Source of the DNA: Myxococcota bacterium
Lineage (GTDB): Bacteria > Myxococcota_A > UBA796 > CAJQPC01
Assembly: GCA_036012755.1 (NCBI GenBank)
Contig: DASCPX010000183.1
Coordinates: 15,849-79,848, forward strand
Direction: 5' to 3'
Length of the DNA: 64,000 bases
Every line of letters starts with the position of its first letter. Positions within the stretch are counted from its first letter, which is position 1. Below are positions 5,937 through 53,435 of the stretch, piece by piece. Position numbers and translations under genes: made by a program. The notes beneath the pieces were generated by a model. That model saw only the letters and a program-made list of their open reading frames with translations, made no database searches and had not been told where the DNA came from.

Positions 5937-5937
5937 C

Positions 5938-5989
5938 GCCATCGAGCCATCGAGCCATCGAGAACGATCATCGATCCATCGAGCATCGG
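5938..5989. repeat. octamer tandem repeat: GCCATCGA x3 perfect, then degenerate copies
   Basis: Read directly: gccatcga gccatcga gccatcga gaacgatc atcgatcc atcgagc atcgg. It starts 2 nt after the TAG of the ABC ATPase, in a convergent intergenic region. Confidence 0.8.
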
Positions 5990-6031
5990 GGCGGGCAGCC
6001 CGGAAGCTCCAGTTGCGTACCTGTGGGGTAC

Positions 6032-10849: not shown

Positions 10850-11017
10850 CGCCAGAGCCTATCGCGCTCCGTCCGACGAGGGATGCCTGCGCCGAATCGA
10901 CGCAGCGCACCTGCTCCGATCTGGAGCACACCCGCCCTGCCTTTCACCTGATTTCAGCCCCTTACAGCCTGGCCCGCCTCGTGCATTGTTCGGTCTCCCA
11001 ACGAGACAGGGAGCCAA

Positions 11018-13258: not shown

Positions 13259-13340
13259 CAATCGGTTTCAACTCAAGGACAATTGGTGTTTTCCCGATGC
13301 TCTCGTCAGGGATAGACTGTCGTCTTCCCCCGGAGGCCTC

Positions 13341-13517
13341 ATGTCGTCCTTCCTTCGTCGTTTCCTGGCTGACGAGTCGGCCGCCACGTCGATCGAATAC
13401 GGGCTGATCGCCGTGGTCGTGAGCGTTGGCATCCTCGCCAGCGTGCAGGCCTTCAGCGGCTCGCTGGCCAACCTCTGGAACTACACCGCGACGAACATCA
13501 CGGCGAACCTGCCCTAG
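13341..13517 (+). CDS. flp: Flp/Fap family type IVb pilin-like prepilin
   Basis: ATG 13341 with GGAGG 5 nt upstream, 58 aa. MSSFLRRFLADESAATSIEYGLIAVVVSVGILA matches the Flp leader plus the (G/A)TAIEYGLI motif and hydrophobic helix. Confidence 0.8.
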   Translation: MSSFLRRFLADESAATSIEYGLIAVVVSVGILASVQAFSGSLANLWNYTATNITANLP

Positions 13518-13519
13518 GG

Positions 13520-15601
13520 CTGCGCTACGGGGCGCTCCTGTGCGCCTCGGGGGCTTGCGCGCTGGCCTACGAGGTGTTGTGGATGCGGCGCTTCGCGCTG
13601 CTCTTCGGCGCCTCTGCGATCGCCACGACCTTGACCCTGGCCACGGTCTTCGGGGGGCTGGGGCTCGGGGGACTGCTCGGTGGTCGCCTGCCAGCGCACC
13701 GTCCGAACCGGACCTACGCCCTGCTCGAGGTCTCCGCGGCGCTCTGGGCCCTTGCCCTGCCCTTCGGGCTCGTCGCCCTCACGCCTCTGGTCCAGCGAGC
13801 GGACTCCCTGCTGGTCGACGCCTTGGTCGTCGCGCTGCTCGCCGGGCCTCCAGCGGTGGCCTTGGGCGCCACGCTCCCGGTGCTGGCCCGGGGCTTTCGG
13901 AGCCGGGCCACCGTCGCCGGGCTCTACGCGGCGAACACCGCCGGGGCAGTGATCGGCGCGCTGGCGGTTCCGGCTCTGTTGCTCCCGCTCTTCGGCGTCA
14001 CGGGCTCCGAGCGCCTCGTCGCCATCAGTGGCATCGCCGTCGCGGTCGTCGCTGGCCTCAGCGGTCTCCAGCGACGGGAGCGGGCGGTGGATCGGGTGCT
14101 GCGAGCCGACGCCCTGCTCGCCGTCGCCGCCGCGGGGTTCTCGGCGATGGTGCTGGAGGTCGCGTGGACACGCCTGGGCGCGGTGCTGCTCGGTCCCTCG
14201 ATCCATGCCCTCGCCTGGGTGCTGGCGGCCTTCCTGGGCGGTATCGCCGTCGGTGCGGCCCTCGGTCGTCGCAGAGGTCGCCTCGACCACGCGTTGGGGG
14301 CCATGGCCCTCTGCGCGCTCGCTGGCACCTTCGTCTACGCCCAGGCGCCCCTGATGTTCGCGAGCCTGTATGACCGCCTCGGCCCGGAGGGTCTCTGGCT
14401 CGCTTCGGTCGGTCTCGCGGTGCTCACGATGGCCGGGGCCCCCATCGCCAGTGGCTTCGTCTTCGCTCGAGCCCTGGAGCAGGGCGAGGTCGGCGCGCTC
14501 TACGGCGCCAACACGCTGCTGGGTGTGGTCGGCGCCGCGCTGGCCGGGCTGGTCCTCGTGCCAGCCCTCGGGGTGCAGGGGACCGTCGTCGTCGCCGCAG
14601 TCGTGGTGGCGCTCGCGGCCTCCGTGGTGGGCCGGAGACCGTGGTGGATCCTGGCCGCTGTCGCCCTCGCGGCGCTGATGCCGGACTGGGACGCCAGGCT
14701 GTATGCGGTCGGGATCTACAGCCGGGTCAGCGATCTCGGGGACCGCAGCCGCGAGGGCATCCGGAGCTTCGCGCAGGAGGGCTGGGACCTGCTCTTCTAC
14801 GAGGACGGTCGGACCGCGGCGGTGGCGGTCGGCCAGAGCACTACGACGGGCACGATCTGGCTGTCCATCAACGGCAAGGTCGACGCCTCCACCGGTGACG
14901 ACATGCCGACCCAGGTGCTCTCCGGCCAGATCCCGCTGCGCATGCACGGCGCCGCCAGGGACGTCCTCGTCGTGGGGCTCGCCTCCGGAGTCACGGCAGG
15001 GGCTGTGCTCGACGAGGGCGTGGAGTCCCTGGTCATCGTCGAGCTCGAGCCCAGGGTGGTCGAGGCCAGCCACTACTTCGACGATTACTCCGGAGCCCCG
15101 CTGTCCGACGAGCGCACGCGCCTGCGGGTCGACGACGCCCGGGCGGTCCTCTCGGAGCCCCAGACCTTCGACGTCATCATCAGCGAGCCCAGCAACCCCT
15201 GGATCACGGGGGTGTCGAACCTCTTCACCCTCGAGTACTGGGAGCTGGGGCGCAGCCGGCTCCGGGAAGGCGGGGTCTTCTGCCAGTGGATCCAGCTCTA
15301 CGGGCTCGGGACCCGGGAACTCCTCAGCGTCGTCGCTACCTTCGTCGAGGTCTTCCCCCAGACCTGGCTGTACGAGCCGCTCGAGGGCGGCGACGTGCTC
15401 CTCGTCGGTGCGCTCGGAGAGGTCTTGCTGGACGATCTCGACCCCGTGTTGGGCCCCGACGGCGTCCAGCGTCTGGCCGGTGGGGCCCGCCTCAACACCG
15501 ACGAGCACCCCTGGGTCGAGCTCGAGGCGCCCAGGGCGATGCACCTCGCGACGGTTGTGGCCAACAAGGAGGCCATCCGGCGCGTTAGCGGCCGACAGTG
15601 A
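13520..15601 (+). CDS. fused polytopic membrane / spermidine synthase-like (SAM-MTase fold) protein
   Basis: Track ORF 13574..15601 (GTG). N-terminal multi-TM region plus a C-terminal spermidine-synthase-like part (VLVVGLASGVTAG, VIVELEP, FDVIISEPSNPW). The first helix (YGALLCASGACALAYEVLW) lies upstream of any ATG/GTG/TTG, so a CTG start at 13520 is proposed. The start is uncertain. Confidence 0.75.
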   Translation: MRYGALLCASGACALAYEVLWMRRFALLFGASAIATTLTLATVFGGLGLGGLLGGRLPAHRPNRTYALLEVSAALWALALPFGLVALTPLVQRADSLLVDALVVALLAGPPAVALGATLPVLARGFRSRATVAGLYAANTAGAVIGALAVPALLLPLFGVTGSERLVAISGIAVAVVAGLSGLQRRERAVDRVLRADALLAVAAAGFSAMVLEVAWTRLGAVLLGPSIHALAWVLAAFLGGIAVGAALGRRRGRLDHALGAMALCALAGTFVYAQAPLMFASLYDRLGPEGLWLASVGLAVLTMAGAPIASGFVFARALEQGEVGALYGANTLLGVVGAALAGLVLVPALGVQGTVVVAAVVVALAASVVGRRPWWILAAVALAALMPDWDARLYAVGIYSRVSDLGDRSREGIRSFAQEGWDLLFYEDGRTAAVAVGQSTTTGTIWLSINGKVDASTGDDMPTQVLSGQIPLRMHGAARDVLVVGLASGVTAGAVLDEGVESLVIVELEPRVVEASHYFDDYSGAPLSDERTRLRVDDARAVLSEPQTFDVIISEPSNPWITGVSNLFTLEYWELGRSRLREGGVFCQWIQLYGLGTRELLSVVATFVEVFPQTWLYEPLEGGDVLLVGALGEVLLDDLDPVLGPDGVQRLAGGARLNTDEHPWVELEAPRAMHLATVVANKEAIRRVSGRQ

Positions 15602-32603: not shown

Positions 32604-33245
32604 ATGAGTACGCGCATTCCCGACCTCGACCTCGTCAGGGCCTACCTCGACGAAGATGACATCCAGGCCTTCGAGCTCATCTACAAGCGCTACGCGAACG
32701 ACGTCTACAGGGCGATGTCCCGGGCCCTTTCGGGCTTCTCCTTCGCAGAGGTCGACGAGTTCAGCCAGGAGCTCTGGGCCCGTGGTCGCGCGCTGCTCGA
32801 GCCCTATGACCCGGAGCGCGGCACCCTGCGCACCTACCTGGTCGTGCAGGCCACCTGGGGTGCTCGCTCGGCGGAGGCCAAGCGCATGCGGCGCCACGCC
32901 AGCCGCCGCGCCGCCCAACTCCCTGCCACTGGCCAGGATCCCGCGGCGATGCGCTGCATGAGCGCCTGGTCCCTCGAGAACGCGGACGGCGCTGTCGCGC
33001 GCATGGGCGGAAACGGAGCCCGCAAGGCTGGCGCCACCCGCGCGGTGCGCACCTACCTCGCCCAGAACACCGATCGTCCCGCCCAGGTGCTCGAGGCCTG
33101 GCTGGAAGGCCGCACCGGCCGTGACATCGCGCAGGAGCTGGGTGTCCACCCGGCGCAGATCAGCCGCGACCTCGCCCGCGCCCGCTCCAGGATGGAGGGC
33201 TTCCTCCCGGCCCGCCCCCGGCTGGCCGCCCCGAGCGACGACTAG
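32604..33245 (+). CDS. ECF-type (sigma-24 family) sigma factor
   Basis: Region 2 is AFELIYKRYANDVYRA...AEVDEFSQELW. Region 4.2 is GRTGRDIAQELGVHPAQISRDLARARSRM. There is an unusually long Arg/Ala-rich linker. Confidence 0.75.
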   Translation: MSTRIPDLDLVRAYLDEDDIQAFELIYKRYANDVYRAMSRALSGFSFAEVDEFSQELWARGRALLEPYDPERGTLRTYLVVQATWGARSAEAKRMRRHASRRAAQLPATGQDPAAMRCMSAWSLENADGAVARMGGNGARKAGATRAVRTYLAQNTDRPAQVLEAWLEGRTGRDIAQELGVHPAQISRDLARARSRMEGFLPARPRLAAPSDD

Positions 33246-33357
33246 CGCCCCTCGGCAGAAGTCGCGATGCGCCTTCCACCGGCGCCTTCGGCGCGCGGCG
33301 CGGCGCATCGTTCACCCCGTCGCAGCCCGACTGCGTCGGAACTCGTGCCGGAGAGAA

Positions 33358-34065
33358 CTAGCGCTTCTGCTTCAAGGCATGGGCCGCCCGGCGGCGCCGG
33401 CCCAGGTCCGAGACCTCCTTGACGGCGTCTAGCTGATCGAGCACGTCGTCGACCTCGTCGATGGCCAGATCGGCCGTGACGCGGGTCGAGGCCACGTGCA
33501 GCGTGCGCACCGTCTCGATGAGGTCCTCCACCTCCTCCTCGTCCTCCGCGTTTCCAAGAGGCACTCGGAGCAAGGCCGAGCGGAAGGCCTCGCGGATCCG
33601 GCGGGCGGCCTCGACCACGCGCGGGTTCTCGTGGCGGGCCAACTCGTCGAGCAGGGTCAGCGCCGCCTGCTGGCGGGTGTCGCCAGGTGCGATCTGCGAG
33701 GTGGCGGGCGGTGCGATCTGCGAGGTGGCGGGCGGTGCGATCTTCTTGACCTGCTCCGTCGTGAACAGGATGCGGTCTCCCTCCCAGGCCGTGCAGTGCA
33801 TCGTGAAGCCGTTGTAGGAGACGACCTGGATCCTGAGCGTGCGGCCCGAGACGACCACCTGGTGGATCGCCTCGGTGACGTAGTTGCCGCCGATCCGAGT
33901 CGTGTCCTGGACGACGCCGCTGACGGCGACGGTCTCCCGCAGGCCGTAGTTCCGGATCTTGATCGTGCTGCCGGCGAACTCGAACTCCCAGCTGTGGAAG
34001 GGGATGACCCACATCAGCGTCGGCAGCACACCGAGCAGGAAGACGAGCAGGGCTAGGACCTCCAT
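33358..34065 (-). CDS. N-terminally anchored membrane protein with internal IAPPATSQ repeat
   Basis: ATG 34065-34063 overlaps the upstream TGA by 1 nt. TM helix MEVLALLVFLLGVLPTLMWVIPF. It is the last gene of the five-gene operon. Confidence 0.6.
   Translation of the reverse strand: MEVLALLVFLLGVLPTLMWVIPFHSWEFEFAGSTIKIRNYGLRETVAVSGVVQDTTRIGGNYVTEAIHQVVVSGRTLRIQVVSYNGFTMHCTAWEGDRILFTTEQVKKIAPPATSQIAPPATSQIAPGDTRQQAALTLLDELARHENPRVVEAARRIREAFRSALLRVPLGNAEDEEEVEDLIETVRTLHVASTRVTADLAIDEVDDVLDQLDAVKEVSDLGRRRRAAHALKQKR
33686..33743. repeat. perfect 24-bp tandem repeat (2.4 copies) inside a CDS
   Basis: ggtgcgatctgcgaggtggcgggc occurs at 33686-33709 and 33710-33733, then ggtgcgatct. It encodes IAPPATSQ-IAPPATSQ-IAP on the minus strand. 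Confidence 0.9.
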
Positions 34066-35066
34066 CAGCCGGCGACCTCCGTGAGCACGCGCAGGAAGTT
34101 CCCTCCCCAGCAGGCAAGGATCTCGGGCGCCGTCCATCCCCGCTCGAGCAGGGCCTGGGTCAACAGCGGCAGCTTGTCGGCGCCGTCGAGGTCGCGAGGG
34201 TAGAGGCTCCAGCCCTCCCAGTCGCTGCCGATGGCGCAGTGCTCGACGCCGACCACGTCGCGGATGTGGGTGAGGTGGTCGACGACCGCGGCCAGGCCGC
34301 CTGGGCCGATGAAGGGCGTGACGAAGATCACACCGATGACACCGCCGGTGTCCGCGATAGCGCGCAGCTGGGAGTCGTCGAGTCCGCGCGGGCTGTGGTG
34401 GACGCTGTTGCAGGCGGTGTGGGAAGCGATGACCGGGGCCCGGGTCCGCTCGCAGAGCTCGAGCAGCCCCGCTCGGTTCAAGTGCGCGACGTCGATGACC
34501 ATCTGCAAGCGGTTCAGCTCGTCGACGAGGTCACGACCGTAGTCCGTCAGGCCAGCCTTCGGGTCCTGACCCCAGCCGACCATCGGCTTGCAGGCCTCGT
34601 TCTCGCTGAAGTGGGCGAAGCCGACGTAGCGCATGCCGCGGTCGCGGTAGTGGGAGAGCTTCCCGAGCGAACCGACCAGTCCGTGGGCGCCCTCCAGGCC
34701 CGCGAAGCAGGCGATGCGACCAGCCTCGCAGGAGGCACGGATCGTCGCGCTGGTCGTGGCCAGCTCGAGGTCGTCGGGGTGGGCGGCGAGCTTGGCGTGC
34801 ATCCGGTCGAGCATGCGCTCGATCTTCGTGGGGCCGCGGCGGCCCGCCAGGGGGGAGACCACCACACCCAGGGCCAGGCAGCCGACGTTGCCGGCGCGCA
34901 GACGAGGCAGGTCGACGTGCCCCATCAGGGCGGCGCCCGGGAGCAGGTTCGGGCGGTGCTCCCGAGCCCAGTTCCACGCGAGGAAGGTGGTCGTGAGCAG
35001 GACGTCGCAGTGGAGATCGATGATCAGCGCCTGCTCGTGGATCGCCCGGGCCTCTTCGCTGATCAC
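34065..35066 (-). CDS. membrane (renal-type) dipeptidase family M19 protein
   Basis: GTG 35066-35064 overlaps the upstream TGA. Motifs: IIDLHCD (HxD), AGLEGAH, FAHFSEN, IDVAHLN, IASHT, IGSDWEG. Confidence 0.85.
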   Translation of the reverse strand: MISEEARAIHEQALIIDLHCDVLLTTTFLAWNWAREHRPNLLPGAALMGHVDLPRLRAGNVGCLALGVVVSPLAGRRGPTKIERMLDRMHAKLAAHPDDLELATTSATIRASCEAGRIACFAGLEGAHGLVGSLGKLSHYRDRGMRYVGFAHFSENEACKPMVGWGQDPKAGLTDYGRDLVDELNRLQMVIDVAHLNRAGLLELCERTRAPVIASHTACNSVHHSPRGLDDSQLRAIADTGGVIGVIFVTPFIGPGGLAAVVDHLTHIRDVVGVEHCAIGSDWEGWSLYPRDLDGADKLPLLTQALLERGWTAPEILACWGGNFLRVLTEVAG

Positions 35067-35971
35067 AGGAGCCTCCCGACCACGTCGACACCTTCCCAGC
35101 TCCCGTTGTCGACAGGTCGCTGGAGCTGGCCCGGGGCGCAGAGGGTGTGGAAGCCCACGGGCTCGACGTCGGTCGCACAGGCTCCGAGCGGGAGACCCTC
35201 CAGGATGGCGAGATCGTCCAGCGTCGCGATGGCGTGGACCGGCAGCATGCGGGGCAGGGGCGCCGGCGCGAGGAACTCCAGCGGCAACAGCGGGACCGCC
35301 CACTCGTTGCCGCTCCAGCAGCGCCCGCGGACCCGCCCGAGCCCGCAGCGTCGGCGCCACTCGGGGCCGACGGCCGGGTCGACCTCGCCGCGCGGCATGC
35401 TGATCGCGAGCTCGCGAAGGGCCTGGGCGACGCGCATCGCGAGGCGCTCGGCGTCCCCGAGGCAGAAGATCGCGGCGGGGCTGCGGCACCCCGCCCCGTC
35501 GTAGAGCGCCGCGTCCTCTGCCAGGGCTCGCGCGGTCGCATTGGAGATGTCCTCTACGACGGCGAAGCTGACCCGGTGGCCGAAGAGGGCCTTCGGACCA
35601 GCGAAGGCGCTCTCGAGGGTGGACATCGCCGCGTCGGCGCCAAAGGCGAGGAGGGCGTCGACCTGCTCCAGCAGGGTGAGATCGTGGCCCTCGACGCAGC
35701 GGACGCCGTAGGCCTCTGCGATGGCGCGAGTCGCCTCGGGCCTGCGGGACGGGGCCTTGAGCACCACCTCGCAGCCGAGCCTGGTGAAGCGGTCGACCCA
35801 GCGCAGAGGCGCGGTGAAGACGTTCTGCGCGCACCAGATGGCCACCCTGCGTGCGCTGCCGCTTCGCGTGGTCGCCGTCGAGATGCACTCCAACTCGACG
35901 CGCAGTGCCTCTCGGGCGCCCTCCTCCGAGAGGCCGGTGTTCCAGGTCGCGGGGTCGCCGAGAGCTCTCAC
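35063..35971 (-). CDS. LuxC-like acyl-CoA/acyl-protein reductase (aldehyde-forming)
   Basis: GTG 35971 overlaps the upstream TGA. VVLKAPSRRPEATRAIAEA and DGAGCRSPAAIFC (candidate catalytic Cys) fit the LuxC family pattern from memory. Confidence 0.65.
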   Translation of the reverse strand: MRALGDPATWNTGLSEEGAREALRVELECISTATTRSGSARRVAIWCAQNVFTAPLRWVDRFTRLGCEVVLKAPSRRPEATRAIAEAYGVRCVEGHDLTLLEQVDALLAFGADAAMSTLESAFAGPKALFGHRVSFAVVEDISNATARALAEDAALYDGAGCRSPAAIFCLGDAERLAMRVAQALRELAISMPRGEVDPAVGPEWRRRCGLGRVRGRCWSGNEWAVPLLPLEFLAPAPLPRMLPVHAIATLDDLAILEGLPLGACATDVEPVGFHTLCAPGQLQRPVDNGSWEGVDVVGRLL

Positions 35972-36822
35972 TCGGCCGCCAGCGAGCAGCCTCGGGGCTC
36001 GGCTCTCTGAAGTCGGCCCTGGAGGAAGACGCGACCCCCGCGGACCTCGCCGAGATCTTCGGTCTCGATCGCGAGCAGGCTGCTCCAGTTCGCCAGGTCC
36101 ACGAAGCGCAAGAGCCCGACTCCCTCCGTGGGCTCGCCGCTGAGCGGATCGACCGCGTAGGGAACGAGCCAGCGGGGCGGAAGGTAGCCCTCACCGGGGG
36201 CACCCCACAGCTGGGAGGACAGCTCCGTCATGCCGTACTCGTCGATGCGCCGGAAGTGGGGCCCCAGGCCAGCGCGAAGGTCGAGGTGCTCCGGGGAGTC
36301 ACCCTTGAAGCCACCCGTGACCATCACGACCGAGCCCGGCGGGAGCTCCATGACAGGCAGCTCGGCGGCTCGGGACGCGGTGGTGGCGACGAACACCGGG
36401 CCCTCGCCTGAGGGGGCATCAGCGGTGGCGTCCGGGAAGAGCATTCGCATCATGTGACCCAGGGAGCTGTCAGCTGCCCTCGGGCAGAGGTTCAGGGCTT
36501 GTGGGGGCGGGTCCGTCACGCAGGCCTCGAAGTGGAGACGCGCGGCCACATCGTAGGCCTCTGTGTCGGCCATCATGTGCACGCCCCGCTCCCCGGTCGT
36601 GCCGCTGGTGCGGAAGGTGACGCCCTGTCTCGAGGTGCAGAACACGAGCGCCCGGCAGAGTCGGACAGGCACCGCCGGGATCTCGTGGAGCGAGGTCGGC
36701 TCGACCCCCGCGGCGAAGTCCCGGTGGACCGGGGACACGGTGACCTGCCAGCGGAAGAGCTCCAGCGCGAAGGCCTCGACGTCGCCGCCGTGCCGGAGGA
36801 AGTCCAGGACACGAGCCCTCAC
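35968..36822 (-). CDS. LuxE-like acyl-protein synthetase / adenylate-forming enzyme
   Basis: GTG 36822 overlaps the upstream TGA. FALELFRWQVTVSPVHRDFA, IPAVPVRL, FRTSGTTGERG, EYGMTELSSQL, and C-terminal RGCSLAAE. Confidence 0.65.
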   Translation of the reverse strand: MRARVLDFLRHGGDVEAFALELFRWQVTVSPVHRDFAAGVEPTSLHEIPAVPVRLCRALVFCTSRQGVTFRTSGTTGERGVHMMADTEAYDVAARLHFEACVTDPPPQALNLCPRAADSSLGHMMRMLFPDATADAPSGEGPVFVATTASRAAELPVMELPPGSVVMVTGGFKGDSPEHLDLRAGLGPHFRRIDEYGMTELSSQLWGAPGEGYLPPRWLVPYAVDPLSGEPTEGVGLLRFVDLANWSSLLAIETEDLGEVRGGRVFLQGRLQRAEPRGCSLAAE

Positions 36823-38060
36823 GACAGCTCTCCGAGGGCGCCCAGGAAGGCCTCGAGCTGCTCCTTGGTGACGGTCAGCGGTGGGGTCAGGGCCAGGACC
36901 TCGGCCTGCTCCCCGGCTGGCAGCGCGATGAACCCGCGCTCCAGCAGCCCGCGGCTCAGGGCCAGGCTGTCGGTGACCTCGAGACCCAGCAGGAGCCCGC
37001 GACCCCTGACCTGGCCGAAGCCGGCCAGCTCATCGGCGAACCAGCGCCCGAGCTCGGCAGCGCGCTGGGGAAGGGCCGTCTCGAGGATCACCTGGATGCA
37101 GGCCAGCGCCATCGCGCAGCCCGGGGGATGACCGAGGAAGGTCTGGGTGTGGAGCGCCTCGCCAGCGCTGGCGCCCCAGGCCTCCATGATCTCCCGGCGA
37201 CCGACACAGGCCGAGATGGGCGCCCCTCCGGCCATGCCCTTGCCGAGGCAGACGAGGTCGGGGAGGAGGCCCTCTGCCTGGAAGGCGAAGAGGCTGCCGG
37301 TGCGCCCGAAGCCCGTGTAGATCTCGTCGAGGATCAAGACGGCGCCTGCCTGATCGCAGGCCTCGCGCAGGTCCCCGAGCCAGCCGGCCGGGGGCACGCG
37401 GATGCCGCCGCGTCCCTGGATCGGCTCGACGAGCACGGCGCCGGCGTCGCCGAGATCGATCGCCCCACCAAAGGGGGCGTGGCGCACGTGGTGGCCGAGC
37501 TGCTCCTCGAAGGGCGCGCGGAAGGAAGCTGACTTGTAGGCGGTGGCGGCGAGCGCACCGTAGGAGAGGCCGTGGTAGCCGCCGGAGAAGGCCAGCACGC
37601 CTGGGCGCCCGCTGGCGATGCGTGCCGTCTTCAGCGCCGCCTCCACCGCGTCGGAGCCAGAGGTCCCGAGGATGCTGTGGTCGAGCCCCGTGATCGCCGC
37701 GAGGCGCTCCAGGAGCTCGATGCGTCGCGGGTCCGGGAAGGCGTCTCCCATCGCGTGGGGAAGGCGCGAGAGCTGGGCTCGCCCCGCGGCGACGACCCGG
37801 GGGTGGCGGTGACCGACGCTGGCCGCGCCGAAGCCAGCGGTGAGGTCGACGAAGACGTTGCCGTCGACATCACGGACGTTGGCTCCCAGGGCCTCGTCCC
37901 AGACCATCGGATCGGTGTCGGCGGTGCCGAGGGTCGCAGCGCGACGGGCTCGCCGCGCCGTGATCGCGGGGCACTCCCGCCGGGCGAGCCGGTCCACCCA
38001 GGCGCGCGAAGTCGGGCCCGGGACCGCGGTCTTCAGCGCTGGCAGGGAGCGACCGTCCAC
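36819..38060 (-). CDS. class III pyridoxal-phosphate-dependent aminotransferase (GABA/ornithine aminotransferase family)
   Basis: GTG 38060. Motifs: GFGAASVGHRHP, SGSDAVEAALK, VEPIQGRGG, LILDEIYTGFGRTG, LGKGMAGG (PLP Lys). Confidence 0.9.
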   Translation of the reverse strand: MDGRSLPALKTAVPGPTSRAWVDRLARRECPAITARRARRAATLGTADTDPMVWDEALGANVRDVDGNVFVDLTAGFGAASVGHRHPRVVAAGRAQLSRLPHAMGDAFPDPRRIELLERLAAITGLDHSILGTSGSDAVEAALKTARIASGRPGVLAFSGGYHGLSYGALAATAYKSASFRAPFEEQLGHHVRHAPFGGAIDLGDAGAVLVEPIQGRGGIRVPPAGWLGDLREACDQAGAVLILDEIYTGFGRTGSLFAFQAEGLLPDLVCLGKGMAGGAPISACVGRREIMEAWGASAGEALHTQTFLGHPPGCAMALACIQVILETALPQRAAELGRWFADELAGFGQVRGRGLLLGLEVTDSLALSRGLLERGFIALPAGEQAEVLALTPPLTVTKEQLEAFLGALGELS

Positions 38061-38087
38061 CTCGGCCCTCTAACCCCAGGCAAGATA

Positions 38088-39518
38088 GTGGAGCGCGTGC
38101 TCCTCCCCATCCTGCTGGCCTGCACAGGTGGGCCGACGCTGGTCCAGCCCGAGGGCACCATCGTGCTGGACCTCGTCAACCCGACCCCGACCGACGCGTT
38201 CAGCGGCGTCGACGAGATCTCGATCGAGCTCCGCGTCGGCGGCGTCGTAGTGGCGTCGGAGACCTTCGGCGTCGACGAGCCGGCCGAGATTCCAGGCCTC
38301 GATGCCTTCGGCACAGGGCGCTTCCACGTCGCTGGGCTCTCCGGCGGCACCGTCATCAGCTATGGCCGCTCGCCAGAGATCCTGCTTGGACCCGACCAGG
38401 ACCACAACGTCGCGATCACCTTCCTGCCGGTCAACCAGGTCCTTTCCATCGCGGACTCGATGGCCGAGCCCCGCTCGCAGCATGGCGCCGTCCGGCTCCC
38501 CGACAACCGCATCCTGCTGCTCGGCGGGGCCAATCCGAACCGGGACGCCAGCTACGACGACGTCGAGATCTACGACCCGAGCGAGGGCATCTTCAAGCCC
38601 ACCGGGACCTACCTGCCGCTGTCGCTGTACGACGTCGAGCTGTCGTTCTCGACGGACCGGACGATCTGGCTCAACGGAGGGCGGACGCTGTTGTCAGAGG
38701 GGCCGAAGGTGCAGGCCATTTTCTTCGAGTACGACCCGGTCACCGAGCAGATAGAGATGGCCGCCGACATGAACGTGTCCCGGGCCGGTCACTGCTTCCA
38801 CGAGTTCCGCGACGGCTTCGGCGCCGCCATGGGTGGGAACCGGGACACCCCCGCGATCGACTACCTGCGTCCGGACCCCGACACCGGCGAGTGGACCTGG
38901 TCAGAGGTCGTGATCAGCGGCCTGGACCAGACGGCGATGACGGGCTGCGCCGCGCTGCCCACCGGCGAGGTCTTCGTCCAGGGCCTCAGTGACGACTCCA
39001 CCGGCCTCTTCGACTTCAGCGAGGACGCCGCCGCAGCCAACCCGAACATCTCTGACGCCTTCTACGCCGTCGAGAGCGGGACCTACGAGCTGCTCGACGG
39101 CGCGATGCTGATCCCCGTCTCCGATGAGCAGGTCTGGGTCGGCGGTGGGCGCACCATCGGTGGCGTGTCCGACACCACCGGGCGCATCTTCGACGTCCCG
39201 ACCCGCAGCTTCGTGGGTGGGGTGGATCCCTCTCGCGAGCGGGTCGACGGCCAGTGGGACGAGTGGATCGAGGATGGCTGGTACGCCCTGGGCTGCGGCT
39301 CGCCCGACGGCGACAACTCTCGCTCCCAGACCACGATCGAGCTCATCAACCTGCTCTCCGGCGAGCGCTACTCCTACGTCGAGGGGGACCGCAGCCGTCC
39401 AGGTTGTGAGCTGACGGTGCAAGCCGACGGCGCGATCCTCATCACCGGTGGCTTCGAGTCCGGCGGTGACGCCGAAGCGAGCGCCGCCGTGATGGTCCCC
39501 TACAACCCCCAGGAGTGA
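38088..39518 (+). CDS. Kelch-repeat lipoprotein
   Basis: GTG 38088 (or 38097). Lipobox PILLAC. Repeats of the type PRSQHGAVRLPDNRILLLGG and SRAGHCFHEF. The track ORF 37572..39518 is over-extended antisense to the aminotransferase. Confidence 0.7.
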   Translation: MERVLLPILLACTGGPTLVQPEGTIVLDLVNPTPTDAFSGVDEISIELRVGGVVVASETFGVDEPAEIPGLDAFGTGRFHVAGLSGGTVISYGRSPEILLGPDQDHNVAITFLPVNQVLSIADSMAEPRSQHGAVRLPDNRILLLGGANPNRDASYDDVEIYDPSEGIFKPTGTYLPLSLYDVELSFSTDRTIWLNGGRTLLSEGPKVQAIFFEYDPVTEQIEMAADMNVSRAGHCFHEFRDGFGAAMGGNRDTPAIDYLRPDPDTGEWTWSEVVISGLDQTAMTGCAALPTGEVFVQGLSDDSTGLFDFSEDAAAANPNISDAFYAVESGTYELLDGAMLIPVSDEQVWVGGGRTIGGVSDTTGRIFDVPTRSFVGGVDPSRERVDGQWDEWIEDGWYALGCGSPDGDNSRSQTTIELINLLSGERYSYVEGDRSRPGCELTVQADGAILITGGFESGGDAEASAAVMVPYNPQE

Positions 39519-39519
39519 G

Positions 39520-40956
39520 TCACGGGCCGAAGCGGTGGGTCAGCGCGGCGATGAGCCTGGCGTGGATGCCGTCGAAGCTGCCGTTGCTGAAGATCGCGAC
39601 GACGTCCCCCTCGACGGCGTTGGCAGCGACGGCGGCGACGATGTCCTCTGTGTGGTCGAGGCAGGTCGCCTCCACGCCACGGGCTCGGATGTCGCTGGCG
39701 AGGGCGTGGGGGTCGAGGCGCTCCTCCGCCCCGATGCGCTCGTCGTAGGTGGCCTTGATGATCACGCAGTCCGCGCCGTCGAAGGCCTCTGCGTAGGGTC
39801 GCTGGAAGATCTTGCGGCGAGATGTGTTCGAGCGCGGCTCGAAGACGACCCAGAGGCGGCGCCCCCCGAAGCGGAGGCGGAGGGCCTCTGTGGTCACCCG
39901 CACGGCGGTCGGGTGGTGGGCGAAGTCGTCGACGACGGTCACACCTCCGACCTCGCCGATGATGTCCTGGCGCCGCTTGATGCCGCGGAAGGTGTCGAAG
40001 CCGCGAGACAGCTGATCCGCTGAGAGCCCCTCGCGCTCGAGCGCCGCGACAGCCGCGACCTGGTTGTAGAGGTTGTGCTCGCCGACGAGGATCGAGCTGA
40101 ACACGCCGAAGGGCTGGCCCTCGCGCAGCACCGAGAAGCGCATGACGCCGCGGTCGTGGTCGACGGCCTCGACGCGCCCGTCCCACTGCTGGTTTGGCCC
40201 GTACTTCCGGACCTCGCAGGGGGCGTCCTCGCAGACCGCGCGAACCGTCGGGTGGTCCCAGCGCGCGACGAGGCAGCCGTCCTCTGGCATCGACGCCACC
40301 AGCTCGCGGAAGGCCTCCTGGCAGTGCTCCAGGTCCCGGTAGATGTCCGCGTGGTCGAACTCGACGCTCGTGATGATCGCGGTGTCGGCGCGGTAGCTCA
40401 GGAACTTCGGGCGCTTGTCGAAGAAGGCGGTGTCGTACTCGTCCCCCTCGATGACGAAGTGACTGCCGCCACCGGCCCTCGCCGTGCGATCCCAGCCGTG
40501 CACCACGCCGCCGACGAGGTAGCCGGGATCGAGCCCGGCGTCGTCGGCCAGCCAGGCGGCGATCGCGGTCGTGGTCGTCTTTCCGTGGGTGCCGGCGCAG
40601 ACGATGGACCTGGCCTCGCGCAGGAAGAGCTCGCCGAGCACGTGCGGGAAGGAACAGTAGGCGAGGTCCCGCTCGAGCACGGCCGCGGCCTCTTCGTAGA
40701 CCGCTCGGATGACGTTGCCGACGACCACGAGGTCGGGGCCGTGGTCGAGGTTCGAGGCGACGTAGCCCTTCTGGATCTCGATCCCGAGCGAGGCGAGGTA
40801 GTCGCTCATCGGTGGGTAGGCGCCGGTGTCGGAGCCGGTCACGGTGAAGCCGGCGTCCGACAACATGCCGGCGATGGCACCCATGGCCGTGCCGCAGATG
40901 CCCATCACGTGGATGGTCTTCAGCTCCTCTGGGAGCCCTTGGTCGTAGAGAGGCAT
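39520..40956 (-). CDS. mpl: UDP-N-acetylmuramate:L-alanyl-gamma-D-glutamyl-meso-diaminopimelate ligase
   Basis: IHVMGICGTAMG, YPPMS, GTHGKTTTT, FFDKRPKF, EFDHADIY, VGEHNLYN, DDFAHHPTA, EPRSNT, SNGSFDGIH. These match E. coli Mpl closely from memory. Confidence 0.9.
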   Translation of the reverse strand: MPLYDQGLPEELKTIHVMGICGTAMGAIAGMLSDAGFTVTGSDTGAYPPMSDYLASLGIEIQKGYVASNLDHGPDLVVVGNVIRAVYEEAAAVLERDLAYCSFPHVLGELFLREARSIVCAGTHGKTTTTAIAAWLADDAGLDPGYLVGGVVHGWDRTARAGGGSHFVIEGDEYDTAFFDKRPKFLSYRADTAIITSVEFDHADIYRDLEHCQEAFRELVASMPEDGCLVARWDHPTVRAVCEDAPCEVRKYGPNQQWDGRVEAVDHDRGVMRFSVLREGQPFGVFSSILVGEHNLYNQVAAVAALEREGLSADQLSRGFDTFRGIKRRQDIIGEVGGVTVVDDFAHHPTAVRVTTEALRLRFGGRRLWVVFEPRSNTSRRKIFQRPYAEAFDGADCVIIKATYDERIGAEERLDPHALASDIRARGVEATCLDHTEDIVAAVAANAVEGDVVAIFSNGSFDGIHARLIAALTHRFGP

Positions 40957-41543
40957 GCTCGGGTGTGCGGAGCGACGGTGGAGGGGAGGGTGCGGAGTGA
41001 CTGACGCAGCATGGACAGCGCGTCGGGGGTGTCCACGTCATACCAGAAGGGAAGCAGATCGCAGTCGAGGTGTGCGGCTCGCAGCAGGGTCTCGGCGAGG
41101 ACGGCGTCCGTGCTCCAGGGCATCTCCGCCATCAACTCCGGGTGCGGGCGCTGCCAGGCGATGCCCCAGTAGCCTCCGTCGAAGGCCGGGCCTATGGCGA
41201 GCTCGTGTCGCCCGGCGGCGAGGCGCTGGAGCAGCTCTGGCGGCAGGGTAGGGGAGTCCGTTCCCAGCGCCACAGACGGCCCCCGCATCGCGTGGAGCAT
41301 GCGCGCGCCGAGGTCCCCCTGGACCTGGGCTTCGACCGGACAGTCGAGAGCCTGCACCCAGGGATGGTCGAGGTCTCCGGCGATCGAGGCGGTGAGCTCC
41401 AGGTCACAGGACCGCACCAGCGCGAAGACATCCGCGGCCATCGCGGCGTGGAGCTCGGCAGCGCCCTCTGGACCGAGGGCCGGGATCAGCCGGGTCTTCA
41501 CCGTGCCCGGGACCGGAGGCCTGGTGAACACGACGGCCCTCAC
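40920..41543 (-). CDS. DUF2064 / TIGR04282-like nucleotidyltransferase-fold protein
   Basis: GTG 41543 overlaps the upstream TGA. N-terminal TRPPVPGTVKTRL motif; LGTDSP; GPAFDGGYW. The 3' end overlaps the mpl start by 37 nt. Confidence 0.6.
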   Translation of the reverse strand: MRAVVFTRPPVPGTVKTRLIPALGPEGAAELHAAMAADVFALVRSCDLELTASIAGDLDHPWVQALDCPVEAQVQGDLGARMLHAMRGPSVALGTDSPTLPPELLQRLAAGRHELAIGPAFDGGYWGIAWQRPHPELMAEMPWSTDAVLAETLLRAAHLDCDLLPFWYDVDTPDALSMLRQSLRTLPSTVAPHTRACLSTTKGSQRS

Positions 41544-42220
41544 GTTCGATGCCGCCAGGTCGCGCGCAGGATGCCGATGCCTGCTCGGATCGTGCCGCGG
41601 ACGGTGCCCGAGATCTTCGAGCGACCGCCGCCCCGAGGCCGGTAGCGCACGGGCACCTCCTGGACCCGAAGGCCGTTCTGGACTGCCTTCATCTGCATCT
41701 CCACGTTCCAGCCGTAGGTCATCTCCGACATGCGCAGGGCCAGCAGCACGTCCCAGCGGAGGGCTCGGAAGGGGCCCATGTCCCGGTAGGTCCAGCCCGT
41801 CCAGCGGCGGATGAGGCGGGTCGCCAGCAGGTTCCCGAAGCGCTGGTTGGGCAGGAGCGCGCCCTGCTCGGCGAGGCTGACGCGCTCTCCCAGGACCATG
41901 TCGGCTTCGCCCTTGAGGATGGGCCTCAACAACAGCGGCAGGTCGTCCACGTTGTCGCTTCCGTCCGCGTCGAGGATGACGATGATGTCCGGTGGTGTCT
42001 CCTCCAGGTGTGCAAAGCCCGCGAGACAAGCAGAGCCGTAGCCCCTGCGCTCCTCGATCACGAGCTCGGCGCCCCCTTCCAGCGCGATGTCTCTGGTGCG
42101 GTCCGTGGAGCCGTTGTCGACGACGATGACCCGCCCGGGACGAAGTCTGCGGAGGTCCGCGAGCACCGACGGGAGGGCCTCCTCCTCGTTGAGGGCGGGG
42201 ATGACGACCGCGACGCGCAC
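41540..42220 (-). CDS. family 2 glycosyltransferase
   Basis: VVIPALNEE, VVDNGSTD, ILDADGSD (DxD). 226 aa. Confidence 0.85.
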   Translation of the reverse strand: MRVAVVIPALNEEEALPSVLADLRRLRPGRVIVVDNGSTDRTRDIALEGGAELVIEERRGYGSACLAGFAHLEETPPDIIVILDADGSDNVDDLPLLLRPILKGEADMVLGERVSLAEQGALLPNQRFGNLLATRLIRRWTGWTYRDMGPFRALRWDVLLALRMSEMTYGWNVEMQMKAVQNGLRVQEVPVRYRPRGGGRSKISGTVRGTIRAGIGILRATWRHRT

Positions 42221-49546: not shown

Positions 49547-49669
49547 CTTCGGCTACCACCGGCGGGCTCACGCTGTCAACGGCGGGACCCCAGCTTGACG
49601 TCGCTCGCACGCGCGCGGTACAGACGTCGCGGACAGTCCTGCCTCCCCAGACGCCGAGTTCGCGCTCTC

Positions 49670-50284
49670 ATGTCGGTCACCGTTCGCGGTTACGTCTTCA
49701 TCGACTCCCTCCAGCCGCAGCTGGCTGCTTTCACCGGCACGACCTGCCGGGGCTTCCTCCCCCTCGCCGGACAGGCGTCGCTGTGGGTGGAGACGGCTCC
49801 GGGGATGATCATCAACCGGGTGACGGACGTCGCGCTCAAGGCGACGCGCGCGGTGCCCGCGGTGCAGGTGGTGGAGCGGGCCTTCGGCCTGCTCGAGATC
49901 CACCACGACGACAAGGGCGAGGTGCTCTCAGCGGGTGACGCGATCCTCGAGTACCTCGGCGCCGACAGGGCCGCCGTGAGCAAGCCGAAGGTGGTCAGCA
50001 ACCAGATCATCCGCGCGGTAGAGGCCTACCAGGCCCAGCTCATCAACCGGAACCGCCAGGGCATGTTGCTCATTCCGGGACAGTCGCTCTTCATCCTCGA
50101 GACCGAACCAGCTGTGTGGGCGGTCATCGCGGCGAACGAGGCCGAGAAGGCCGCGAACGTCAACCTCGTGAACCTCCGGCCCTTTGGCGCCTTCGGGCGC
50201 TTGTGGATGGCTGGGACCGAGTCCGAGATCGACTCGGCCGCCCAGGCCGCCCAGGCCGTGATCGAGTCTCTCTCTACCTCCTGA
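49670..50284 (+). CDS. bacterial microcompartment shell protein, tandem BMC domains (BMC-T)
   Basis: ATG 49670, 204 aa, made of two ~95-aa halves. Each half has a BMC-like core ([32 protein letters not shown]; [32 protein letters not shown]). Confidence 0.75.
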
Positions 50285-50301
50285 ACAAACCGGAGATCCA
50301 G

Positions 50302-50592
<291 letters not shown>

Positions 50593-50595
50593 TAG

Positions 50596-50909
50596 ATGAA
50601 GCTCGGCCGCATCGTCGGGACCGTGGTCTCGACGCGAAAGGACCCCAAGATCGAGGGCTTGCGCCTGTACCTCGTGCAGGACCTGTCCCTCGCTCTGGAA
50701 GGCAGGGAGTCCTTTGTCGTCGCGGCCGACGCGATGGGCGCGGGAGTCGGCGAGGTCGTCCTCTACGCCTCGGGCTCCTCCGCTCGCCAGACGGACATCA
50801 CGGACAACCGGCCAGTCGACGCCGTCGTCATGGCGATCGTCGACTCGATCCATCGCTACGGCGAGCTGGTGTTCAACAAGGTGCCGCCGTTTCCGAAGGC
50901 TGACGGCTG

Positions 50910-50910
<1 letters not shown>
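50596..50910 (+). CDS. microcompartment vertex pentamer (BMC-P, EutN/CcmL family)
   Basis: [28 protein letters not shown] ... AVVMAIVD is the typical EutN/CcmL pattern. Confidence 0.9.
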
Positions 50911-52313
<1,403 letters not shown>

Positions 52314-52318
52314 GCGAC

Positions 52319-52897
52319 ATGAGCGGAACCGGGGATGCGCTCGCACTCGTCGAGCTCGACTCGATCGCGCGTGGCTACCGCGTCCTGGACGCCATGGTGA
52401 AGCGCTCGCCGGTCGAGATCCTCGAGGCCAACCTCGTCGAGCCGGGCAAGTACCTGATCCTCTTCGCTGGCGGTGTCGCCGAGGTCGAGGAGAGCTACTC
52501 GGCGGCCCTCGAGGCCGGGGCCGGACACCACCTCGACGCGATGCTCCTTCCGATGGTCCACGGCGCCATCGTGCCGGGACTGCGCGGCTACCACAACTGC
52601 GAGGAGCCAGACACCATCGGGGTGATCGAAGCGACCTCCGTGGCGGCGATGCTCGAGTCCTGCGACCGCTCGCTCAAGGACGCCGAGGTCGTGCTCGCCG
52701 GCCTGCGCCTCACCCCGGCGCTCGGCGGAAAGGCCTTCTTCGTCGTGCACGGCGAGCAGGCCGATGTCGAAGCGGCTGCGGAGATCGCAGGGGCTGTGCT
52801 GCTCGAGCGCAAGGTCCAGATCGAGGTCATCGCGCGGCCGCACGAGGACTTCCTGGCCTACCTGCTTCGCCCCGCGCCCTTTAGAGTGGAGACCTGA
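52319..52897 (+). CDS. bacterial microcompartment shell protein, tandem BMC domains (BMC-T, PduT-like architecture)
   Basis: ALALVELDSIARGYRVLDAMVKRSPVEIL and TIGVIEATSVAAMLESCDRSLKDAEVVL are the cores of two BMC domains. 192 aa. Confidence 0.8.
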   Translation: MSGTGDALALVELDSIARGYRVLDAMVKRSPVEILEANLVEPGKYLILFAGGVAEVEESYSAALEAGAGHHLDAMLLPMVHGAIVPGLRGYHNCEEPDTIGVIEATSVAAMLESCDRSLKDAEVVLAGLRLTPALGGKAFFVVHGEQADVEAAAEIAGAVLLERKVQIEVIARPHEDFLAYLLRPAPFRVET

Positions 52898-53166
52898 TGG
52901 AGCTCGCGCGCGTCATCGGCACGGTCGTTGCCACCCAAAAGCACGAGGCCCTCGAGGGGGTCAAGCTGCTCGTCATCCAGCCCCATGACCACAACGGAGA
53001 CGCCCAGGGCGACCCCATCGTCGCCGCGGATCCGCTCCAGGCGGGGGTCGGAGACACGGTCCAGTGGATCTGCGGGCGAGAGGCCGCCCTCGCGCTGCCC
53101 CAGACCTTCACCCCGGTCGACGCCTCGATCGTGGCCATCGTCGATCACGTCTGGGGTCGCGAGTGA
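52897..53166 (+). CDS. microcompartment vertex pentamer (BMC-P) paralogue 2
   Basis: MELARVIGTVVATQKHEALEGVKLLVIQ ... ASIVAIVD. Its ATG overlaps the upstream TGA by 1 nt. Confidence 0.9.
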   Translation: MELARVIGTVVATQKHEALEGVKLLVIQPHDHNGDAQGDPIVAADPLQAGVGDTVQWICGREAALALPQTFTPVDASIVAIVDHVWGRE

Positions 53167-53435
53167 TCCTCTGCCGGGTCATCGGCAACGCCGTCGCCAC
53201 CGTGAAGCTGCCGGTCTACGTGGGCCACACGGTGCTGGTCTGCCGCCCGGTGAAGTGGGACGGTGAGACCCCCAACGGCCACGTCTTCCTGGCCAGCGAC
53301 TCGGTCCAGGCGGGCGAGGGCGACCTGGTGCTCTGCGCCCGAGAGGGCAACACGGCGAGGCAGATCCTGGCCGACGACGACTCGCCTGTCCACGCCGTCG
53401 TGGTTGGCATCGTGGACGACATCCACACGGAGTAG
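53163..53435 (+). CDS. microcompartment vertex pentamer (BMC-P) paralogue 3
   Basis: GTG 53163 overlaps the upstream TGA (GTGA). VILCRVIGNAVATVKLPVYVGHTVLVCRP ... AVVVGIVD. Confidence 0.85.
   Translation: MILCRVIGNAVATVKLPVYVGHTVLVCRPVKWDGETPNGHVFLASDSVQAGEGDLVLCAREGNTARQILADDDSPVHAVVVGIVDDIHTE

Follow-up and report, generated by a model that had tools for sequence, protein, structure and literature searches.

An aminotransferase joined to LuxE- and LuxC-like proteins in a myxococcal operon: a conserved trio with a proposed acid-to-amine chemistry

Which reaction sequence is encoded when a bacterium couples an aminotransferase gene to relatives of luxE and luxC? The question was raised by a 64,000-nucleotide stretch of a Myxococcota bacterium genome (contig DASCPX010000183.1 of assembly GCA_036012755.1), which is referred to here as the window. 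Five head-to-tail open reading frames (ORFs) occupy positions 38060–33358 of its minus strand. They encode a class III pyridoxal phosphate (PLP) aminotransferase (AT), a LuxE-like adenylating acyl-protein synthetase, a LuxC-like reductase, an M19 dipeptidase and an anchored membrane protein (gene 5). The original prediction had described these genes as a coupled operon for an acid-to-aldehyde-to-amine pathway plus a dipeptidase. We found that the operon is a real, conserved and uncharacterised pathway, and that the earlier interpretation is partly supported.

A three-gene unit kept across phyla

All five ORFs and all four overlaps of the original prediction were confirmed by reading the sequence, which has a G+C content of about 70% in the window. 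Public contigs carrying the same DNA yielded the same five genes in independent gene calls. The gene order and identities had been assigned correctly as well. The AT matched PF00202 (E = 1.5e-82), the LuxC-like protein matched PF05893 in part (E = 6.7e-12), and the dipeptidase matched PF01244 over its full length (E = 1.8e-79). The 4-nt overlaps at the AT/LuxE, LuxE/LuxC and LuxC/M19 junctions recurred in relatives at 46–61% LuxE identity, which indicates conserved translational coupling and not chance. In comparison with L089, the closest relative, whose proteins are about 80% identical, the four enzyme genes had dN/dS values of 0.16–0.25 and are under purifying selection. Gene 5 was far less constrained (dN/dS = 0.51).

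A scan of one genome per species returned LuxE-like relatives in at least 587 stretches. From these species-level genomes, 81 non-redundant related loci (L numbers) were compared. Their gene content was taken from same-strand gene chains; conserved shadow frames at 70% GC confounded stop-to-stop clustering. The best 80 of the at least 587 relatives were all metagenome-assembled genomes, belonging to Myxococcota, Polyangiaceae, Planctomycetia, Omnitrophota, Verrucomicrobiota/Chthoniobacterales, Eremiobacterota, Sumerlaeota, KSB1, Eisenbacteria and Gemmatimonadaceae. A class III AT was found on the same strand beside LuxE in 64 of the 81 loci, immediately upstream in 56, and a LuxC homolog adjoined LuxE or was fused to it in 64. 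The three genes stood together in at least 52 loci, and several of the exceptions were contig ends. This trio spans Myxococcota, Polyangiaceae, Planctomycetia, Omnitrophota, Verrucomicrobiota and Eremiobacterota. The synteny of the original five genes was thus kept only in part: the AT–LuxE–LuxC order persisted, but M19 was present in 10 of the 81 loci and gene 5 was genus-specific.

LuxE and LuxC formed a single ORF in five loci (L008, L013, L024, L028 and L038). When 1.8 billion cluster representatives were searched exhaustively, 3,695 matched at E ≤ 0.001 and 1,246 at E ≤ 1e-30; fusions of 655–771 aa accounted for 13 of the best 25 cluster representatives (P0121–P0132 and P0136). Judging from these comparisons, the unit kept in evolution consists of AT, LuxE and LuxC: three genes and not five. 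The conservation of the trio across phyla and the frequent fusions strengthen the acid-to-aldehyde-to-amine logic of the original prediction, and the trio probably carries out this generic chemistry. A full-text literature search retrieved no published description of an AT–LuxE–LuxC trio, only lux systems, flagellin glycosylation islands and tambjamine clusters.

Active sites of the three enzymes

The LuxE assignment had to be reached by a detour. At E ≤ 0.1, the window protein matched nothing in Pfam or NCBIfam, and PF04443, the LuxE family, failed as well. A profile built from 12 orthologs did match LuxE of the Photobacterium phosphoreum LuxC–LuxE complex (7xc6_E, E = 4e-20); this match extends over 293 of the 315 profile positions and includes the C-terminal (R/K)GCSL motif. 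LuxE-like homologs number thousands, and some of them carry PF04443 or PF00501; ortholog L072 carries PF04443 at 1.3e-11. The motifs TSGTT, GGFKG and YGM(T/S)ELSSQ, together with Cys279, were invariant across the alignment. Cys279 lies within RGCSL, which aligned with KGCSL of LuxE, whose Cys is the acylation site. The AlphaFold2 (AF2) model (pLDDT 84) had the fold of PaaK-family AMP ligases, with query-normalised TM-scores (TMq) of 0.64–0.68. Because the family-level profile, motif and fold evidence overrides the Pfam failure, the LuxE identity holds, and the window protein is a shortened member of the LuxE family.

For the LuxC-like protein, the PF05893 match reached 45.4 bits against a cutoff of 21 and was restricted to profile positions 166–336 of 401. 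The same domain was present in all 63 LuxC-like homologs. Cys162 was invariant in the DGxGCxSP motif, and the homologous Cys of a Planctomycetia member aligned with QQACFS of LuxC (7xc6_A). The AF2 model (pLDDT 96) had 7xc6_A as its top fold match in the Protein Data Bank (PDB), with E = 6.5e-13 and a TMq of 0.79; the TM-score normalised to the target was 0.52. Generic aldehyde dehydrogenases (ALDHs) ranked behind LuxC, with TMq values of about 0.6. The NCBIfam LuxC equivalog NF052251 was not reached (20.2 bits vs a cutoff of 750). With its 302 aa, the window protein is a pared-down LuxC.

The AT reached no NCBIfam equivalog cutoff (ArgD, GabT, PatA, LysJ and BioA among them), and all 25 listed families remained below. 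Its top models were acetylornithine transaminases and LysJ; the best score, for an ArgD-type model, was 266 bits as compared with a cutoff of 457. The best PDB match was the putrescine aminotransferase YgjG (4uox, 9e-64). LysJ/acetylornithine aminotransferase (AcOAT) 1vef also ranked high, and the PDB relatives include racemases and epimerases. The PLP lysine, Lys274, and Asp245 were invariant in the alignment.

The carboxylate-binding residues were found to be altered. In class III transaminases, a canonical arginine (R398 in GabT, with equivalents in LAT and LysJ) binds the α-carboxylate of glutamate or 2-oxoglutarate and pairs with a glutamate switch. A second carboxylate-binding arginine follows the (Y/F)HG motif in GabT, ArgD and OAT. 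In 46 of 47 trio ATs, a small or polar residue replaced the arginine of the xxRxxPPL motif known from LAT and Thermus AcOAT/LysJ; in the C-terminal alignment, VLALTPPL of the window AT stood against TVRFRPPL of LAT and VIRFLPPL of LysJ. A leucine followed (Y/F)HG in 58 of 62, and the residue after DE(I/V) was usually aromatic rather than Gln. The QGEGG motif read QGRGG in 60 of 61 trio-linked ATs, placing an arginine at the Glu-switch position. The sole linked AT with the canonical Glu/Arg pair (L065) was also the most divergent one. The AT motif YHGLSYGALA resembles that of YgjG, which likewise has a non-Arg residue after YHG/FHG. Unlike the trio AT, YgjG keeps the C-terminal arginine and the glutamate of QGEGG.

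With both carboxylate-binding arginines absent, the enzyme is unlikely to bind ω-amino acids, be it GABA, ornithine or acetylornithine, in the classical manner. It is therefore not the ordinary ω-type aminotransferase of the original prediction. The signature is near-universal among the trio-linked ATs, which form a subfamily of their own, dedicated to LuxE/LuxC. The relocated Arg217 is a candidate for binding the amino donor. An arginine sitting where the Glu switch normally lies would be a new way of setting specificity in a heavily studied enzyme class.

Accessory genes, genomic surroundings and a thiamine-linked branch

The dipeptidase had human renal dipeptidase (DPEP1, 1itq) as its best PDB match (1.9e-43). 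Its HxD motif, bridging Glu, both His ligands, the arginine for the substrate carboxylate (PRGLDD) and GSDWEG were kept. The zinc ligands and this arginine are shared with renal-type enzymes in general, including Streptomyces Sco3058 (3id7), over full-length homology. Unlike the 'membrane dipeptidase', the N-terminus VISEEARAIHEQ contained no hydrophobic segment or signal sequence, so the window enzyme is cytosolic; it also differs from the renal type by sharing an operon with a carboxylate reductase. Apart from the window and two close relatives, M19 followed LuxC in only the 10 loci mentioned above. On the LuxE tree, these loci fell into two groups inside one Myxococcota clade, and M19 is a later, lineage-specific addition to the trio. 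With M19 in so few trio loci, the original argument that it points to a dipeptide-like substrate is weak.

Gene 5 was correctly called an anchored membrane protein: a single N-terminal hydrophobic helix was found, with Kyte–Doolittle values above 1.6 at residues 1–25 only. Next come a conserved small domain, a stretch of IAPPATSQ repeats and a tail that is acidic and helical. The protein matched no Pfam or NCBIfam family. It was recognisable only in the nearest relative, L089, through its N-terminal ~60 aa within a 119-aa ORF, and was absent in relatives at ≤61% LuxE identity. The repeat was perfect (period 24, 2.4 copies, 100% matches), and one, two or three units occurred among contigs from different samples, resulting in proteins of 227, 235 and 243 aa. 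These contigs were otherwise 99.97–100% identical over the operon. Gene 5 is genus-specific, fast-evolving and peripheral, and its repeat is a linker, within a membrane-anchored protein, whose copy number varies between populations. The features are listed in Table 1.

Table 1. Positions of the operon features in the window and of the thiamine-branch operons in their own loci
Feature	Position	Strand	Basis or remark
Class III PLP AT, 413 aa, operon gene 1	36819..38060	-	Pfam PF00202
LuxE-like adenylating acyl-protein synthetase, 284 aa	35968..36822	-	Ortholog profile, motifs, fold
Minimal LuxC-like acyl-thioester reductase, 302 aa	35063..35971	-	Pfam PF05893, fold
M19 zinc dipeptidase, 333 aa	34065..35066	-	Pfam PF01244
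Gene 5, N-terminally anchored protein, 235 aa	33358..34065	-	Hydropathy; no family
GTGA start/stop overlap AT/LuxE	36819..36822	-	Sequence read; 4-nt overlap also in L001, L003, L004
GTGA overlap LuxE/LuxC	35968..35971	-	Sequence read
GTGA overlap LuxC/M19	35063..35066	-	Sequence read; 4-nt overlap also in L001, L003
TGATG overlap M19/gene 5	34063..34067	-	Sequence read
Perfect tandem repeat of 24 bp in gene 5, encoding IAPPATSQ	33686..33743	-	Tandem Repeats Finder (TRF)
Thiamine-branch operons	L091 ~5505-13237; L092 ~5560-13069; L093 ~6940-12995		LuxE/LuxC sister branch

Upstream, the operon is bounded by a divergent Kelch-like lipoprotein gene with a GTG start at 38088 (+) and the signal VERVLLPILLAC. 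Only 27 nt (38061–38087) separate this GTG from the AT start at 38060, so both promoters must overlap coding sequence or the transcripts must be nearly leaderless. Promoter and terminator scans of 33000–38600 gave no match, such scans being uninformative in this GC range. The downstream boundary is a convergent sigma-factor-like gene. Further upstream, a minus-strand block at 39520–42220 contains genes for an Mpl-like ligase of murein tripeptides (TIGR01081; 380.9 bits, the cutoff being 388.7), for a DUF2064 protein and for a glycosyltransferase of family GT2. Throughout the Myxococcota relatives this block accompanies the trio; in L004 and L011, the ligase gene abuts the AT gene. A link to peptidoglycan recycling through the ligase was considered and rejected: the adjacency is confined to Myxococcota relatives, where HSP33, DsbD, GT2 and DUF2064 are conserved neighbours too, and it is most simply inherited gene order.

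The original prediction had also pointed to an aldehyde-oxidising microcompartment in the window and had called the operon a second aldehyde-handling module. Shell-protein-like ORFs of 90, 104, 192, 89 and 90 aa were located at about 49595–53435 (+); by eye and from crude ORF calls, they surround the 467-aa ORF that had been named an aldehyde dehydrogenase. This locus lies 11.5 kb from the operon on the opposite strand, with more than ten unrelated genes in between, and no connection was seen.

The neighbours of the trio differed among lineages. In Myxococcota relatives, sigma factors and TrpRS accompanied the genes named above; in Planctomycetia and Omnitrophota, a TrxB-like flavoprotein, GH57, YchF and a DeoC aldolase were found. 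In some Polyangiales and an Eremiobacterota genome, rpoA-rplQ lay directly upstream of the trio or of LuxE (L074:4859-7917, L075 and L069). This position, where the cluster of ribosomal protein genes ends, is strongly housekeeping. In Polyangiaceae, PtsP or a Ser/Thr kinase followed the trio. Pfam searches of the neighbours in diverse loci identified a GGDEF diguanylate cyclase as the only recurrent extra partner (11 loci) and no recurrent hydrolase in place of M19. The GGDEF gene was upstream of the AT in L051, L052, L053, L060, L061, L067, L071, L073 and L081, between AT and LuxE in the Planctomycetia locus L072 (7118–7996), and after M19 in L022 (10996–12456). The Polyangiaceae GGDEF proteins carry an FHA domain and are encoded directly upstream of the AT. 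A Ser/Thr kinase or PtsP gene sometimes lies beside the GGDEF genes. An operonic GGDEF gene in three separate lineages hints at a tie between cyclic di-GMP (c-di-GMP) signalling and the pathway or its product. In the Sumerlaeota locus L076 (8001–10227), a LuxE homolog was followed by a class I/II (AspC-like) aminotransferase, with no LuxC adjoining.

Within 10 kb on either side of the operon, the gene map contained no carrier protein, polyketide synthase (PKS) or non-ribosomal peptide synthetase (NRPS), so the region does not resemble a secondary-metabolite island; no luxD acyltransferase or luxAB luciferase was present there either. Rfam scans of the window, of the relatives L089 and L090 and of all 81 loci gave, everywhere but in L058, no hit above the gathering score except tRNAs. 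The single riboswitch, for thiamine pyrophosphate (TPP), was detected in L058, a locus without an AT. It occupies 7809–7911, about 60 nt upstream of the LuxE gene (genes 7968–13772), and scored 58 bits, the gathering score being 54.3. The same element recurred in relatives from Limnohabitans-like Betaproteobacteria; there, its stems carry compensatory changes or a hairpin is inserted. Since the only riboswitch among the scanned loci sits in an AT-less locus, a thiamine role for the window operon was rejected.

The riboswitch marks a sister branch, whose LuxE is about 34% identical to the window LuxE. The gene order is (cytX)–LuxE–full-length LuxC–ABC ATPase–permease–NMT1/THI5-like binding protein–FabG-like short-chain dehydrogenase/reductase (SDR), with no aminotransferase, and the operon adjoins thiD, thiO and thiS. 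As in the trio, the cassette is followed by a last enzyme acting on the aldehyde. The branch differs from the window operon by its riboswitch, its thiamine transport and synthesis neighbours, the full-length LuxC and the SDR, which implies an alcohol product. The gene content fits an ATP-dependent reduction of a carboxylated breakdown product of the thiamine pyrimidine to the aldehyde and on to hydroxymethylpyrimidine (HMP). Oliveira-Filho, Rodionov and Hanson hypothesised this salvage step for the orphan SDR OarX, for which the activating and reducing enzymes were not found; their study never mentions LuxC or LuxE (PMC11223231). LuxE and LuxC of the thiamine branch could be these missing activation and reduction steps, which makes the branch a concrete candidate for the question left by that study (PMC11223231). 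The comparison suggests that LuxE/LuxC constitute a modular reducing cassette that can take non-fatty substrates, the product being set by the last enzyme: luciferase, SDR or aminotransferase.

Proposed reactions and rival explanations

By homology with the LuxC–LuxE complex, we propose the following steps for the trio. The LuxE-like enzyme would use ATP to adenylate a free carboxylic acid and would keep the acyl group bound in thioester linkage to its own C-terminal Cys279. The acyl group would then move to Cys162 of the LuxC-like protein, and reduction with NAD(P)H would release a free aldehyde, with neither CoA nor an acyl carrier protein (ACP) involved. The dedicated class III PLP enzyme would finally aminate the aldehyde to R-CH2-NH2. 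The sequence comparisons show what the genes are, their catalytic residues, coupling, co-conservation and fusion; we infer the direction, the covalent relay and the cofactors, as well as everything said about the substrate. M19 would most likely act before the reduction, freeing the acid from a dipeptide or an N-acyl amino acid, and not on the amine product; this placement follows from M19 keeping a carboxylate-binding arginine while LuxE and LuxC destroy a carboxylate. A self-contained module converting carboxylates to primary amines, with M19 coupled to it in a Myxococcota subclade, is our favoured overall explanation, to which we give slightly less than an even chance.

The nearest known systems share parts of this scheme. 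The lux LuxC–LuxE pair of P. phosphoreum (7xc6) is homologous, with the catalytic Cys and the C-terminal Cys motif in common, and its genes are adjacent, coupled or fused, as here. The window proteins are shorter (284 vs 373 aa for LuxE, 302 vs 477 aa for LuxC) and miss the NCBIfam LuxE and LuxC equivalog cutoffs by far. An aminotransferase is the constant third partner here, and the substrate need not be a fatty acid. The logic of thioester, aldehyde and amine is also realised by PigE in prodigiosin and by the MxcG reductase (MxcG-R) with MxcL in myxochelin B biosynthesis. In tambjamine biosynthesis, TabE, from the LuxC cluster of the ALDH superfamily, makes dodecylamine together with the transaminase TabA, and TamH is a further tambjamine example of these steps (bioRxiv 10.1101/2025.08.11.669332). 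All of these combine reductive aldehyde release with a class III transaminase, but their substrate is bound to an ACP or a peptidyl carrier protein within a biosynthetic cluster, whereas the trio employs a self-acylating ligase of the LuxE type. The trio has no carrier protein, ketosynthase or NRPS nearby, occupies housekeeping neighbourhoods in many phyla, and its AT has a different active-site signature. The earlier statement that no characterised pathway has such a composition stood as far as the trio itself is concerned, while TabE/TabA, TamH, PigE and MxcG-R/MxcL are precedents for its chemistry. In the trio, a LuxE/LuxC cassette for carboxylate reduction ends in an aminotransferase that is both dedicated and atypical, a variation on a known theme.

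As for the substrate, we weakly prefer a small polar, non-lipid acid, such as an ω-amino acid giving a diamine, with an aldehyde that has no carboxylate nearby. The guess is rather doubtful. It is made because the AT resembles YgjG and lacks the carboxylate-binding arginines, because most loci contain no lipid, ACP or thioesterase gene, and because the sister branch handles a non-fatty, thiamine-related acid.

The strongest competitor, and a serious one, is a fatty-acid route, which we regard as unlikely. A medium- or long-chain acid would be converted to a fatty aldehyde, much as bioluminescence and tambjamine biosynthesis do, and the AT would turn this into a fatty amine destined for a lipid or a signal, with M19 freeing the acid from an N-acyl amino acid. 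The only characterised LuxE/LuxC use tetradecanoate, and the best PDB match of our ortholog profile is that very complex. An AT without carboxylate-binding arginines would suit a hydrophobic aldehyde, and an α/β hydrolase gene lies ahead of the LuxE–LuxC fusion in L038. The production of dodecylamine by TabE/TabA points the same way (bioRxiv 10.1101/2025.08.11.669332). However, no ACP, thioesterase (LuxD), fatty acid synthase, acyltransferase or lipid gene was found beside the trio in the annotated loci, where the contexts are housekeeping or regulatory (rpoA-rplQ, trpS, ychF, sigma factors and GGDEF). The LuxE model resembles aryl-acid ligases, and the thiamine-related acid of the sister branch indicates that fatty acids are not the only substrates of the family.

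The five genes might also be co-transcribed without forming one pathway, which is distinctly unlikely. M19, perhaps together with the Mpl-like ligase, would then serve peptide or murein recycling and gene 5 the envelope; only the trio would cooperate, or the class III enzyme would be a racemase or lyase acting elsewhere. The lineage-specific occurrence of M19 and gene 5 is in line with this, as are the Mpl-like ligase upstream throughout the Myxococcota relatives (abutting the AT in L004 and L011) and the racemases and epimerases among the class III PDB relatives. What opposes it is the coupling itself: the 4-nt LuxC/M19 overlap is conserved, the AT–LuxE adjacency persists across phyla where all other neighbours differ, and the AT signature tracks the linkage to LuxE/LuxC.

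An analogue of arginine or lysine biosynthesis is improbable. There, the side-chain carboxylate of an N-protected (aminoacyl-) Glu, Asp or aminoadipate would be activated, reduced and transaminated, and M19 would, like ArgE or LysK, take off the protecting residue to give ornithine, diaminobutyrate or lysine. The four enzyme functions do map one-to-one on ArgB/C/D/E, and the outline of activation, reduction, transamination and deprotection is likewise that of LysZ/Y/J/K. The top NCBIfam models of the AT and the high rank of 1vef agree with it. However, the AT scored below every ArgD and LysJ cutoff and lacks the arginines that hold the carboxylates of substrate and cosubstrate in ArgD, LysJ, GabT and LAT. 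The chemistry differs as well, with adenylation and a thioester here and phosphorylation there, a reductase of ALDH/LuxC fold instead of the ArgC fold, and an M19 instead of an M20 hydrolase. The deprotecting enzyme is missing in most trio loci, the hydrolase not being conserved with the trio, and no other hydrolase recurs.

Salvage of a damaged cofactor is very improbable. An oxidised carboxyl metabolite would be recycled to its aminomethyl form, for example a pyrimidine carboxylate via formylpyrimidine to aminomethylpyrimidine, which TenA would convert to HMP. The sister LuxE/LuxC branch does lie behind TPP riboswitches with cytX, thiXYZ-like genes, an SDR, thiD, thiO and thiS, and the housekeeping contexts of the trio and its lack of partner genes would fit such a role. 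But the window, L089/L090 and 80 of the 81 loci contain no riboswitch, the single hit being that of the AT-less L058. No thi gene adjoins the trio, and the thiamine branch splits off deeply as a lineage of its own, in which LuxC has its full length and an AT is lacking. The reverse, catabolic direction, in which the amine gives an aldehyde, LuxC oxidises it to the enzyme thioester and LuxE returns acid and ATP, is barely credible: YgjG (PatA; 4uox), the best PDB relative of the AT, is catabolic and pairs with an ordinary aldehyde dehydrogenase, and ALDH-fold enzymes normally oxidise aldehydes, but the transporters and regulators usual in catabolic operons are missing here, and a LuxE/LuxC system running backwards is not known.

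Several observations weigh against the carboxylate-to-amine module itself. An AT that lacks the arginine binding the α-carboxylate of glutamate or 2-oxoglutarate may be no simple transaminase. At 302 aa, the LuxC-like protein falls about 175 aa short of canonical LuxC (477 aa). The window LuxE-like protein, besides escaping every Pfam and NCBIfam family, has an internal deletion of about 25 residues as compared with most orthologs, and the closest folds of its model, aryl-acid ligases, favour neither the diamine nor the fatty route. Fatty substrates could be suggested by the α/β hydrolase gene (L038:7086-7979) that directly precedes the LuxE–LuxC fusion in L038, a locus with no aminotransferase near the fusion. 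M19 is missing from most trio loci, so its role in the same pathway is putative. In the annotated loci and the Rfam scans, no neighbouring gene or riboswitch names the metabolite.

If the module operates as proposed, it would be a compact set of three proteins that needs neither CoA nor a carrier protein to turn a free acid into a primary amine. It would also be the natural counterpart of the cascades of carboxylic acid reductase (CAR) and transaminase engineered in biocatalysis. We consider it possible, with due reserve, that the trio is an unrecognised and widespread route of primary metabolism, present in at least several hundred species-level genomes (of Myxococcota, Planctomycetota, Verrucomicrobiota, Omnitrophota, Eremiobacterota and others), that makes a common amine directly from the corresponding acid without CoA, ACP or phosphate activation and employs a new AT subfamily whose carboxylate-binding arginine has shifted to the place of the Glu switch. 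The amine may be, for example, a diamine, a polyamine or a salvaged aminomethyl metabolite, and the GGDEF coupling would link it to c-di-GMP. Identification of the substrate would close an annotation gap in hundreds of genomes of uncultured lineages, whose metabolism is otherwise inferred from known pathways.

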